Positions 7,838-57,328 of a DNA stretch of 64,000 nucleotides are shown here, piece by piece. The notes beneath the pieces were generated by a model that had not been told where the DNA came from, searched no databases, and worked only from the letters and a program-made list of their open reading frames with translations. Both the position numbers and the translations under genes were made by a program. Source of the DNA: Rhodocyclaceae bacterium (GTDB lineage: Bacteria; Pseudomonadota; Gammaproteobacteria; Burkholderiales; Rhodocyclaceae); assembly GCA_035505955.1 (NCBI GenBank), contig DATJQH010000137.1, positions 2,325 to 66,324 of the forward strand, given 5' to 3'. Each line of letters begins with the position of its first letter. The stretch's first letter is position 1.

Positions 7838-7865
7838 AAGAGTCAGCCCCCGTGGTGCGCCAAGC
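7838..7865 (+). repeat. dispersed word copy A: AAGAGTCAGCCCCCGTGGTGCGCCAAGC (intergenic, between recN stop and bamE start)
   Basis: Matches AGTCAG-N10-RCGCC with extended flanks. Confidence 0.7.
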
Positions 7866-7874
7866 TGCGTCGGG

Positions 7875-9530
7875 TCAGCGCGTTGAGAGCATCTCGCGGG
7901 CGTGGCGGCGGGTCGTGTCGGTGATCCTCACGCCGCCAAGCATGCGCGCCACTTCCTCCACGCGCATGTCGGCATCGAGCACCCTGACGCGGCTGACCGT
8001 GTTGCCATCCGCGGTCTCCTTGGCGATCGACCAGTGCCAGTCCGCCTGCGCGGCCACCTGCGGCAAGTGCGTCACGCACAGCACCTGCCGCTGCCGGCCG
8101 AGTCGCGCCAGCATCTTGCCGACGATCTCCGCCACGCGCCCGCCGATACCGACATCCACCTCGTCGAAAATCAGCGTCGGGGCAATTCCGGCGGTGCTGG
8201 CGATGACCTGGATGGCGAGGCCGATGCGCGACAGCTCGCCGCCTGACGCCACCTTGGCAAGCGGACGCAGCGGCTGGCCCGGATTGGCCGTGACGAGAAA
8301 GGCGACGTCCTCGAGGCCGTGTGCCGCGCCTTCCGGCAGCGCCTCGAGCGCGATTTCGAACCGGCCGCCGACCATCGCCAGCTGCTGCATGCCTTCGGTC
8401 ACCGCGGCGGAAAGCTCCGCCGCGCCCTTCTTGCGCACAGCAGAAAGCTTTTGCGCCACCTTGAGGTACGCGGTTTGCGCAGCGCGCTCCCTCTCGGCCA
8501 ATGCCGCCGGATCGGCTGCCAGCGCCAGTTCGTCGAGCCGCGCCGAGAGTCGCGCCAGCATTTCGGGCAACTCGTCCGGCGTCACGCGATGCTTGCGCGC
8601 AGCCGAGGTCACGGCCTGGATGCGCGCCTCCAGTTCCGCCAACCGCCCCGGCTCAAGATCGAGTCGCTCACGATAGCGCGACAAGGCGTGCGTCGCCTCA
8701 CCCAGCTGGATGCGGGCGGCGTCGAGAAGTTCAGCGGGTTCCCGCAACGCCTCGTCGTAGTCGAGCAGCGGCCTCAGCCGTGCAGCTGCATCGTCGATCT
8801 GCGTCGACACGGCCGTCTCGTCCTCGTCGAGGAGCGCCAGCGCCGCCGTGGCGCCTTCCAGCAGGGCCGCTGCGTGAGCAAGGCGCCGCTGTTCCTGGTT
8901 GTCCTCCGCCCAGCCCCGCGCATCGAAGGCCAGCGTGCGCAGTTCCTGTACCTGCCAGTCGAGCGTTTCCTTTTCGCGCGCCATGGCCGACACGTCCTGC
9001 TCGGCCCGCTCGCGCGCCTCGCGCAGGTGCCGCCAGGCGCGAAATTTCTCGGCCGTCTCGACGGCAAGCTGCGTAGCGCCGATCTGGCTGTCAAGCAGCA
9101 CGCGCTGCGCATCGCCGCGCAAGAGCGCATGGTAGGCGTGCTGGCCGTGGATGTCGGCGAGGAATTCTCCGGCCTGACGAAGCTGCGTCAACGTTGCCGG
9201 CGAGCCATTGATCGTCGCACGCGAACGCCCGCCGGCGTCGACAATCCGCCGCATGAGGCACGCGCCATCGGCATCGAAGTCGCTGGCGCGCAGCCAGGCG
9301 CCAAGCGCACCGCCCGCTTCGACATCGAACTCGGCCGACACTTCGGCCCGCTCGGCTCCGGCACGCAGGATGGTGGCGTCCGCCCGCTCGCCCAGCGCCA
9401 GCGCCAGCGCGTCGACGAGGATGGACTTGCCGGCGCCGGTTTCGCCCGTCAGGGCGCCGAAGCCGCTCGCAAAATCGAGCTCGAGGCGGTCGACGATGAC
9501 AAAGTCGCGGATGAAGAGTCGGCGCAGCAT
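7875..9530 (-). CDS. recN: DNA repair protein RecN
   Basis: N-terminal Walker A GETGAGKSI, a long coiled-coil middle region, and a C-terminal SGGELSRI signature plus FDEVDVGIGG. Confidence 0.9.
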   Translation of the reverse strand: MLRRLFIRDFVIVDRLELDFASGFGALTGETGAGKSILVDALALALGERADATILRAGAERAEVSAEFDVEAGGALGAWLRASDFDADGACLMRRIVDAGGRSRATINGSPATLTQLRQAGEFLADIHGQHAYHALLRGDAQRVLLDSQIGATQLAVETAEKFRAWRHLREARERAEQDVSAMAREKETLDWQVQELRTLAFDARGWAEDNQEQRRLAHAAALLEGATAALALLDEDETAVSTQIDDAAARLRPLLDYDEALREPAELLDAARIQLGEATHALSRYRERLDLEPGRLAELEARIQAVTSAARKHRVTPDELPEMLARLSARLDELALAADPAALAERERAAQTAYLKVAQKLSAVRKKGAAELSAAVTEGMQQLAMVGGRFEIALEALPEGAAHGLEDVAFLVTANPGQPLRPLAKVASGGELSRIGLAIQVIASTAGIAPTLIFDEVDVGIGGRVAEIVGKMLARLGRQRQVLCVTHLPQVAAQADWHWSIAKETADGNTVSRVRVLDADMRVEEVARMLGGVRITDTTRRHAREMLSTR

Positions 9531-56278: not shown

Positions 56279-56281
56279 GAT

Positions 56282-57328
56282 CTATGGGAACTGCGAAAGG
56301 AAGCGCAAATCGCCTTCGAAGAACAGGCGCAGGTCGTTGATGCCGTAGCGGAGCATGGTCAGCCGGTCGGGGCCCATGCCGAAAGCGAAGCCGGTGTACT
56401 TCTCCGGGTCGATGCCGCCGAAGCGCAGCACGTTCGGATGCACCATGCCGCAGCCGGCGATCTCCAGCCAGCGGCCCTCGAGCGCACCGGACATGAAGGC
56501 GACGTCGATCTCGGCCGAGGGCTCGGTGAACGGGAAGAAGGACGGGCGGAAGCGCACCTTGAGGTCGTCGCTTTCGAAGAAGCGGCGCAGGAAATCGGCG
56601 ACCACGCCCTTGAGGTCGGCGAAGCTGACGTTCTCGCCCACCCACAGGCCTTCGACCTGGTGGAACATCGGCGAATGCGTGGCATCGGAATCGACACGAT
56701 AGACGCGACCCGGCGCGATTACGCGGATCTCGGGCATGGTGTCGAGGTGCTTGTAACGCTCGACATGCGCCTGCATGTAGCGGATCTGCACCGGGCTCGT
56801 ATGCGTGCGAAGCAGCACGTCCTCCTGCACGCGGCCCTCTGCGTCGAGCAGGTAGAAGGTGTCGTGCATCGAGCGCGCGGGGTGCTTCTCCGGAGTGTTG
56901 AGGGCAGTAAAGTTGTGCCAGTCGCCCTCGATCTCGGGACCGTCGGCGACCTCGAAGCCGATCGAGCGGAACAACTGCTCGATGCGCTCCAGGCTGCGCG
57001 TCACGGGATGCAGCGCACCGCGCGTCTCGCCGCGGCCGGGCAGCGTCACGTCGAGGGCCTCCGCCGCGAGTTGCGCTTCGAGCTGGGCCAGCCGCAGGGC
57101 CTCACGGCGTGCCGTCAGGGCTGACTCTACGGCCTGCTTGGCGATGTTGATGGCGGCGCCGGCGCTCTTCCTCTCCTCGGCCGCGAGCTTGCCCAAGCCC
57201 TTGAGGAGCACGGTCAGCGAACCGTCCTTGCCGAGGTAGCGCGCCTTGGCCTCCTCGAGCTTCGCCGGTTCGGTGGCGACGCCGAAATCGGCGGTGGCTT
57301 GTGCAACGAGTTGATCGAGATTGTCCAT
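56282..57328 (-). CDS. pheS: phenylalanine--tRNA ligase alpha subunit
   Basis: Class-II motifs ([37 protein letters not shown]). Confidence 0.95.
57106..57128 (-). repeat. dispersed word copy J (reverse orientation, inside pheS, sense to the gene): AGAGTCAGCCCTGACGGCACGCC
   Basis: Exact AGTCAG-N10-ACGCC on the minus strand. Confidence 0.6.

Follow-up and report, generated by a model that had tools for sequence, protein, structure and literature searches.

The closest described counterparts of the element reported here are two families of DNA uptake signals. The DNA uptake sequence (DUS) of the Neisseriaceae, GCCGTCTGAA, and its dialects are 10–12 nt long and have the minor pilin ComP as their receptor; the uptake signal sequence (USS) of the Pasteurellaceae has a 9-nt core, AAGTGCGGT, set in a motif of ~30 nt, and ComN/PpdA is the predicted receptor. 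To our knowledge, such signals have been known for about 40 years and from these two host-associated families only. A preprint of October 2025, covering 177 genomes, continues to regard uptake sequences as limited to the Neisseriaceae and Pasteurellaceae (bioRxiv 10.1101/2025.10.24.684340). The element described here is a dispersed word of ~28 nt in a 64,000-nt stretch of DNA from a Rhodocyclaceae bacterium (GCA_035505955.1, contig DATJQH010000137.1, positions 2,325 to 66,324 of the forward strand), referred to below as the window, whose own numbering is used throughout. The word is carried by a clade of Rhodocyclaceae that includes Sulfuritalea, Sulfurisoma and many metagenome-assembled genomes (MAGs), and we lean, with modest confidence, towards reading it as a genome-saturating, DUS/USS-like 'self' uptake signal specific to this Sulfuritalea/Sulfurisoma-related clade. 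Neither GCCGTCTGAA nor AAGTGCGGT has a match in the window. The word is unrelated in sequence to DUS and USS and would therefore be an analogue of those families rather than a member.

A sequence-only reading of the window had described the word as a bipartite pattern, AGTCAG-N10-RCGCC, with 11 copies on the two strands. The pattern has 12 exact matches in the window, against 0.14 on average and never more than 1 in dinucleotide-preserving shuffles, an over-representation of ~90-fold. All 11 copies are where that reading had placed them, but its total missed the match at 38856–38876 (−) in lpxH, and its claim of strong over-representation stands although its expected number (0.03) was lower than the 0.14 obtained from the shuffles. 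A thirteenth copy, in the bioH-like gene, is an AGTCGG variant (Table 1). Alignment of the window copies gave the 28-mer AAGAGTCAGCCCCCGTGGTACGCCAAGC. In the metagenomic population to which the window belongs, 146 unique copies have the consensus AARAGTCAGCCCCCGTGGTACGCCGTGC, with conservation ending sharply beyond ~28 nt, and the word as a whole can be written AARAGTCAGCCCCCGTGGTACGCCGTGC/AAGC. The supposed N10 spacer is itself conserved, and the bipartite geometry therefore gives way to one continuous asymmetric word. It has at least 16–20 near-fixed positions, and nearly all of 21–25 nt are strongly conserved. Copies span a graded range of mismatches shaped by codon constraints: within the window, intergenic copies differ from the 28-nt consensus at 1–3 positions and coding copies at 4–9.

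Pfam matches in the window (RecN, BamE, a class I/II aminotransferase (bioF-like), an alpha/beta hydrolase (bioH-like), GrpE, Hsp70, DnaJ, a metallophosphoesterase (lpxH-like), an acyl-CoA dehydrogenase, ECH/3HCDH (fadB-like), PheS and PheT) agree with the gene contexts assigned earlier, both at gene ends and within genes. Four copies lie at gene ends (recN, grpE, dnaJ and lpxH) and the remainder inside the bioF-like, bioH-like (two copies), lpxH, fadE-like, fadB-like, pheT (two copies) and pheS genes. When all protein sequences and the overall codon usage were held fixed and synonymous codons alone were permuted, 0.56 copies were expected in coding sequences (CDS), with a maximum of 3 in 1000 shuffles, whereas 10 were observed. 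The word is therefore written into synonymous positions, and it is preserved at the DNA level rather than as a by-product of protein sequence.

The word is also neither a mobile element nor an RNA feature. No direct or inverted repeats, target duplications or terminal repeats flank the window copies, and a Pfam survey of the window genes revealed no transposase. Repeat search, folding, Pfam and codon alignments together uphold the earlier view that the word is not a palindrome and not of the repetitive extragenic palindromic (REP) or miniature inverted-repeat transposable element (MITE) type. RNA folding gave no significant fold at the four gene-end copies (z −1.3 to +1.0), a terminator scan found none at the window copies, and Rfam returned two tRNAs in the window and no family at the word. 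Orientation relative to transcription is mixed (in CDS, 68 copies are sense and 53 antisense; in co-directional spacers the split is 19 to 28), so the feature acts on DNA, not RNA.

The origin of the coding copies can be followed in codon alignments of pheS, pheT and thrS from the window and seven syntenic relatives (loci from other genomes carry an L number). Coding copies are substitutions and not insertions, as they align codon for codon with motif-free homologues; the sole change in length is of one codon, at a single pheT site (column 634). In pheS, the motif-free locus L121 reads GAG GCC GCG CTG ACC GCG CGC CGC (EAALTARR), and carriers read GAG TCA GCC... or GAG TCG GCG... (ESAL..ARR). 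The same change from Ala to Ser creates the word in thrS, but only in L119 (AAG TCA GCC) and in L122 and L233 (AAG TCG GCG), each in its own dialect; the thrS of the window has no copy at this site. In the pheT of L119 and L120, residues have been exchanged (KVMLDGEA to KVSLGGTP) in a way that accommodates the word. The preferred frames are (K/E)-S-A-x-V-x-R-R in sense and G-V-P-x-x-L-T-F in antisense orientation, and coding copies are limited to such tolerated frames, being more degenerate where the protein constrains them. Taken with the synonymous shuffling, these alignments show that the window's coding copies are not explained by conserved protein motifs.

Placement is uneven with respect to genes and neutral with respect to strand. 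Non-coding copies make up 40% against a background of 21% by one gene classifier and 53% against 15% by another gene caller, percentages that are approximate as callers based on third-codon-position G+C (GC3) are noisy (one of them misassigned two window copies). Convergent gaps contain 20 copies, as against 3 in divergent gaps, and about half of the co-directional intergenic copies lie no farther than 30 nt past a stop codon, where they often take up a whole spacer of ~40 nt. The enrichment is thus specifically downstream of gene 3' ends. Orientation relative to local GC skew is 93:87, i.e., there is no replication-strand polarity, which argues against polar functions like those of Chi or the FtsK-orienting polar sequences (KOPS).

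The word is not absent outside the window, nor from relatives. An unbiased sample was obtained from ten relatives picked solely by PheT identity (73–88%), for which the thrS-infC-rpmI-rplT-pheS-pheT locus with 10 kb on each side was retrieved; the word family is present in nine of these ten loci at 1.3–2.7 copies per 10 kb (about once per 5 kb), a density that extrapolates to roughly 500–1000 copies per ~4 Mb genome. The tenth, L121 (GCA_046726235.1, JBKPAD010000010.1; 77% PheT identity), lacks the word in every dialect and shows no other over-represented 11–12-mer in 22 kb. Since it lies inside the carrier clade, it offers a natural control, of the 'loss' or 'never had' kind, in looking for the reader gene. 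The PheT of the window matches, at 100% identity, a protein with the name 'MAG TPA ... Rhodocyclaceae bacterium'. Carriers include L123, which encodes a PheT annotated to Sulfuritalea hydrogenivorans, and a Sulfurisoma MAG (L233), and at least one cultured species, Sulfuritalea hydrogenivorans, appears to be a carrier.

A wider scan used AGTCAGCC-N5-GGTACGCC against one genome per species (185,579 species), a search that gives no per-genome totals. Among the matches listed, these concentrate in MAGs of the Rhodocyclaceae, Rhodocyclales and Betaproteobacteria and in a 'Gammaproteobacteria' MAG with a PheT 81% identical to that of the window, and all other organisms are singletons. The coding segment NVEVSRWGTPR matches the pattern in Rhodanobacter, Raoultella and Atlantibacter (L020, L024, L055, L083), which are otherwise without the word. 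Occasional coding matches can thus be protein-motif coincidences, and this one is such a case and accounts for some of the singletons of the scan. Among 2.9 million viral contigs the word is all but missing: AGTCAGCC-N5-GGTACGCC gave 11 singletons there, of which only two (L011, L015) look like true copies; a negative control with the wrong spacing, AGTCAGCC-N6-GGTACGCC, returned 6 unrelated viral contigs. Six of the 11 singletons, in viral contigs with 47–52% GC (L008, L010, L013, L014, L016 and L017), have a 35-nt stretch in common, cggacaAGTCAGCCCCCAGGGTACGCCacaatcgg, which presumably belongs to a single conserved phage gene and has no relation to the word of the Rhodocyclaceae.

At least four lineage dialects of the word were found. 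The window species uses AGTCAGCC-CCCGT-GGTACGCC-GTGC, a form found in one metagenome population only. Most relatives use AAAAGTCAGCC-GTGGC-GGTACGCC-(ACCTG), in short AGTCAGCC-GTGGC-GGTACGCC; L117 has ...GGCACGGC (ending ACGGC); and the Sulfuritalea/Sulfurisoma group has AAAGTCGGCGCTGGCGRNACGGC, also given as AGTCGGCGCTGGCGRNACGGC or AGTCGGCGCTGGCG. Intermediate spacer variants (GTCGT, GTGGT, GCCGT, CTCGT) are also present. Orthologous sites carry the dialect of their own host genome: the pheS site reads TCA GCC where the genome uses AGTCAG and TCG GCG where it uses AGTCGG, the N-terminal pheT site reads GCT GAC T and GCC GAC T, respectively, and in both cases the changes are synonymous. In the region shared with L118, five of the five window copies are conserved. 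Cross-genome alignments of fetched loci showed the partner also to have the word, in its own dialect, in 51 of 62 cases, a figure inflated by ascertainment (the loci were fetched for having the word), although the unbiased syntenic loci show the same pattern. Inspection by eye gave ~13 distinct site pairs involving the window's species, with CC[CG]GT in ~9 of them there and in none of the partner genomes. The flanks in such alignments are often rich in indels while the word is intact. A set of scattered sites that both lasts and changes in concert implies that a trans-acting, sequence-specific reader co-evolves with it. The reverse complement CACGGCTGAC partly resembles the neisserial DUS GCCGTCTGAA; this was rejected as evidence, since the CTGA is lost in the AGTCGG dialect.

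Table 1. Copies of the word in the 64-kb window, with strand, context and status at orthologous sites.
Copy	Position	Strand	Context	Remarks
1	7838..7865	+	intergenic, recN-bamE spacer, 9 nt past recN stop	best copy, 1 mismatch to 28-mer consensus
2	24107..24134	-	within bioF-like aminotransferase gene, antisense	gene peptide GVPPGLTF
3	24633..24660	+	within bioH-like hydrolase gene, sense	peptide KSALVGRQ
4	24918..24945	+	bioH-like gene, sense (ESAPVVRR)	AGTCGG variant; not in sequence-only reading
5	29947..29974	+	final 10 codons of grpE	
6	33222..33249	+	intergenic, 10 nt past dnaJ stop	
7	38852..38879	-	within lpxH-like gene, antisense (GVSSRLTF)	not in sequence-only reading
8	39310..39337	+	overlapping lpxH stop codon	
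9	43516..43543	-	codons 7-16 of acyl-CoA dehydrogenase gene (fadE-like), 17 nt past TetR gene stop	orthologous site kept in L118
10	47992..48019	+	fadB-like gene, sense (KESAFVARR)	orthologous site kept in L118
11	54374..54401	+	C-terminal pheT, antisense (GVPRRLTF)	common to L117, L118; 1-codon insertion vs relatives without copy
12	56152..56179	+	N-terminal pheT, antisense	orthologous site in L117, L118, L119, L123, L233, L235, each in own dialect
13	57102..57129	-	pheS ~codon 67, sense (VESALTARR)	in every carrier examined but L117 (degraded); absent in non-carrier L121

Other features of the window and of the fetched loci are as follows. The interval 7866–24106 is a stretch of 16 kb without any copy, a gap that is not statistically unusual when 13 copies are spread over 64 kb. 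The genes in it are recN, NAD kinase, hrcA, ferrochelatase, a response-regulator GGDEF-EAL protein and two tandem TonB-dependent receptors, as well as two open reading frames (ORFs) without a Pfam match (19394–21425). The region 1152–5038 (−) encodes a flavocytochrome c sulfide dehydrogenase flavoprotein, a dihaem cytochrome c and a multihaem cytochrome of 646 aa with MtrC/MtrF-like domains, genes that fit a sulfur-oxidising, Sulfuritalea-like lifestyle. Two adjacent genes at 35231–37494 (+) have a Cds6_C NTF2-like C-terminal domain in common, one with TPR repeats and the other with a YkuD L,D-transpeptidase domain. The two tRNA genes (Rfam RF00005) are at 53117–53190 (−) and 60604–60677 (−), the latter lying just upstream of thrS and overlapping an over-extended ORF (58625–60640), and the acs gene is at 60731–62623. 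In the locus from the Sulfurisoma MAG (L233), the last 8 kb carry no copies of the word, and a very large ORF (18316–22388, at least 1846 aa up to the edge of the locus, which it overruns) with only a weak phage-integrase match adjoins nikR and nickel transporter genes.

The combination of over-representation, upkeep at the DNA level, origin by substitution, placement shaped by tolerance, strand and replichore neutrality, distribution over a clade with a non-carrier, and dialects that turn over in concert is a signature known only from DNA uptake sequences. From this pattern we infer uptake, a receptor and competence. The resemblance to uptake sequences had been proposed by the sequence-only reading, and the computational tests of over-representation, upkeep at the DNA level, strand and replichore neutrality, 3'/intergenic enrichment, frame-restricted substitution, dialects and lack of mobile-element features agreed with it, with the reservation already made that the likeness is one of analogy. 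On this model, a reader protein, most plausibly a part of the type IV pilus/competence apparatus, would bind the asymmetric word of ~25–28 bp on double-stranded DNA, and fragments carrying the word would be taken up preferentially. Homologous recombination of such fragments would then spread new or improved copies through the population by molecular drive, with or without selection. Copies originate, as the codon alignments show, by point substitution at near-matching sites, and they accumulate where they are tolerated, i.e., in short spacers past stop codons and in a few permissive frames (xAG-TCA-GCC, giving E/K-S-A in sense, and G-V-P-x-x-L-T-F in antisense), and persist for long periods at orthologous positions. 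Drift in the specificity of the reader, followed by all copies of the lineage, may be what produces the dialects.

Several observations weigh against this interpretation. Literature searches found no report of competence in Sulfuritalea or the Rhodocyclaceae, and the Pfam survey found no competence or pilus genes in the window; a pattern search for type IV pilin N-termini over ~2 Mb of fetched loci returned only a GspG-like pseudopilin, which says nothing either way on competence. The word is longer and richer in information than known signals, with its near-fixed positions outnumbering the 10–12 nt of DUS and the 9 nt of the USS core, and its density of ~1 per 5 kb is roughly 4–5 times below that of Neisseria or Haemophilus. 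The shift from GTGGC to CCCGT demands several coordinated changes per site, though intermediates exist, and the ascertainment noted for the cross-genome alignments counts on the same side. Inverted-repeat terminator pairs are common for DUS and USS (bioRxiv 10.1101/2025.10.24.684340). Unlike those signals, the Rhodocyclaceae word has few such pairs (~6 within 150 nt among roughly 350–400 copies, two with a hairpin and T-run) and its window copies have no hairpin. In the two inverted pairs L043:3385–3435 and L047:641–720, a long perfect hairpin is flanked by AAAA and TTTT, and these would form a bidirectional terminator-like structure analogous to the DUS/USS pairs.

The rival of most weight, which we nevertheless regard as unlikely, is that the word is the site of an abundant chromosomal DNA-binding protein with a role other than uptake (for example in organising the nucleoid, in marking hotspots of recombination or repair, or in signalling replication or segregation), maintained by ordinary selection and co-evolution of protein and site. 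Orthologous persistence and the concerted shift of sites with the dialects require a trans-acting, sequence-specific reader, which such a protein would supply, and the missing competence reports and genes also speak for it. Against it are the lack of replichore or strand polarity, unlike Chi and KOPS; the non-palindromic form, unlike parS, matS, SBS and NBS sites; an information content far above the need of known architectural sites; the placement of copies where they do least harm (3' spacers and permissive frames) without a regular or regional pattern; and the lack of the word in the close relative L121. It is likewise a possibility, though a doubtful one, that the word is a chromosomal 'self-identity tag' of ~28 bp and not an uptake signal, seated in synonymous positions of essential genes and rewritten genome-wide upon a change in its trans-acting reader; such a tag would amount to a genome-wide system of recognition or homogenisation of a new kind, without a described counterpart.

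The concerted multi-base turnover of dialects at orthologous sites, and intergenic copies that are often perfect amid indel-rich flanks, could instead reflect templated homogenisation, a retroelement- or gene-conversion-like copying of a master onto near-matching sites, by which a change in the master changes all copies. We consider this very improbable: the window showed neither a master element nor a reverse transcriptase nor an associated gene, and the graded, codon-shaped range of mismatches is that expected of point mutation plus drive. We know of no templated-homogenisation system for words of ~28 nt. The two-block layout initially perceived had also suggested the target of a restriction-modification (R-M) or other DNA-modification enzyme. 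Type I R-M sites have half-sites of 3–5 nt and a non-specific spacer of 6–8 nt and are not enriched in the host genome. The word has blocks of 8–10 nt, and its 'spacer' is constant in any one lineage; nor would one expect R-M targets to be ~90-fold enriched or written into synonymous codon positions, so this alternative finds no support and has a scant chance of being correct. Spread by transposition of a miniature mobile element (REP, MITE or Rickettsia palindromic element (RPE) type), including in-frame insertion into genes, might be suspected from the dispersed repeats and from the pheT copy with a 1-codon length difference (column 634), but it is hardly credible and is effectively refuted already, as the copies bear no mark of insertion and those in genes can be aligned with motif-free homologues codon by codon. 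Nothing is conserved beyond ~28 nt, target duplications, terminal repeats, a palindrome and a nearby transposase are lacking, and orthologous positions carry the copies in their own dialects.

If the uptake reading is correct, the word is a candidate for a third family of such signals, much longer than the other two and of unrelated sequence, in free-living, sulfur-oxidising Rhodocyclaceae of wetland and groundwater. Self-specific natural transformation would then not be peculiar to animal commensals, the dialects would offer a natural series for identifying the receptor by covariation, and the word would serve as a genomic marker for recombination-linked 'species' among uncultured bacteria. 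The proposal is directly testable, with the cultured Sulfuritalea hydrogenivorans appearing in the AGTCGGCGCTGGCG dialect group via the PheT annotation of L123; Sulfurisoma is represented only by a MAG of the same dialect. Were the word something other than an uptake signal, hundreds of sites rewritten in concert, synonymous positions included, would point to an undescribed genome-wide reader, which would be still more surprising.

As had been supposed by the sequence-only reading, no described element has this sequence as far as literature searches show: queries with the word, its dialects and their reverse complements returned nothing relevant. In form, it shares most with the DUS of the Neisseriaceae: both are asymmetric words over-represented on both strands, found within and outside coding DNA and in excess past gene 3' ends, with tolerated coding frames, lineage dialects, conservation of sites in core genes, occasional inverted terminator-like pairs and a betaproteobacterial host. 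It differs from DUS in its length (~28 nt), in being ~5 times sparser and in the rarity of inverted pairs, and its hosts are free-living (wetland, groundwater), whereas DUS hosts are animal commensals. With the USS of the Pasteurellaceae it shares a ~30-nt footprint, graded degeneracy, characteristic encoded peptides, intergenic enrichment and subclade variants; unlike the short USS core with AT-rich flanks, it is strongly conserved over nearly all of its 21–25 nt, G+C-rich and less dense. Chi, KOPS and the architecture imparting sequences (AIMS), and the cyanobacterial highly iterated palindrome (HIP1) are likewise over-represented oligonucleotides found inside genes, with species-specific sequences, but these words are only 5–8 nt long, Chi and KOPS are strongly skewed with replication (against 93:87 here), and HIP1 is a palindrome. 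REP sequences and bacterial interspersed mosaic elements (BIMEs), MITEs and RPEs are also dispersed short repeats, and RPEs can sit within genes. Those elements are palindromic or hairpin-forming units, inserted as such and mostly intergenic, whereas the Rhodocyclaceae word has neither a hairpin nor an insertion signature, and its coding copies are substitutions.

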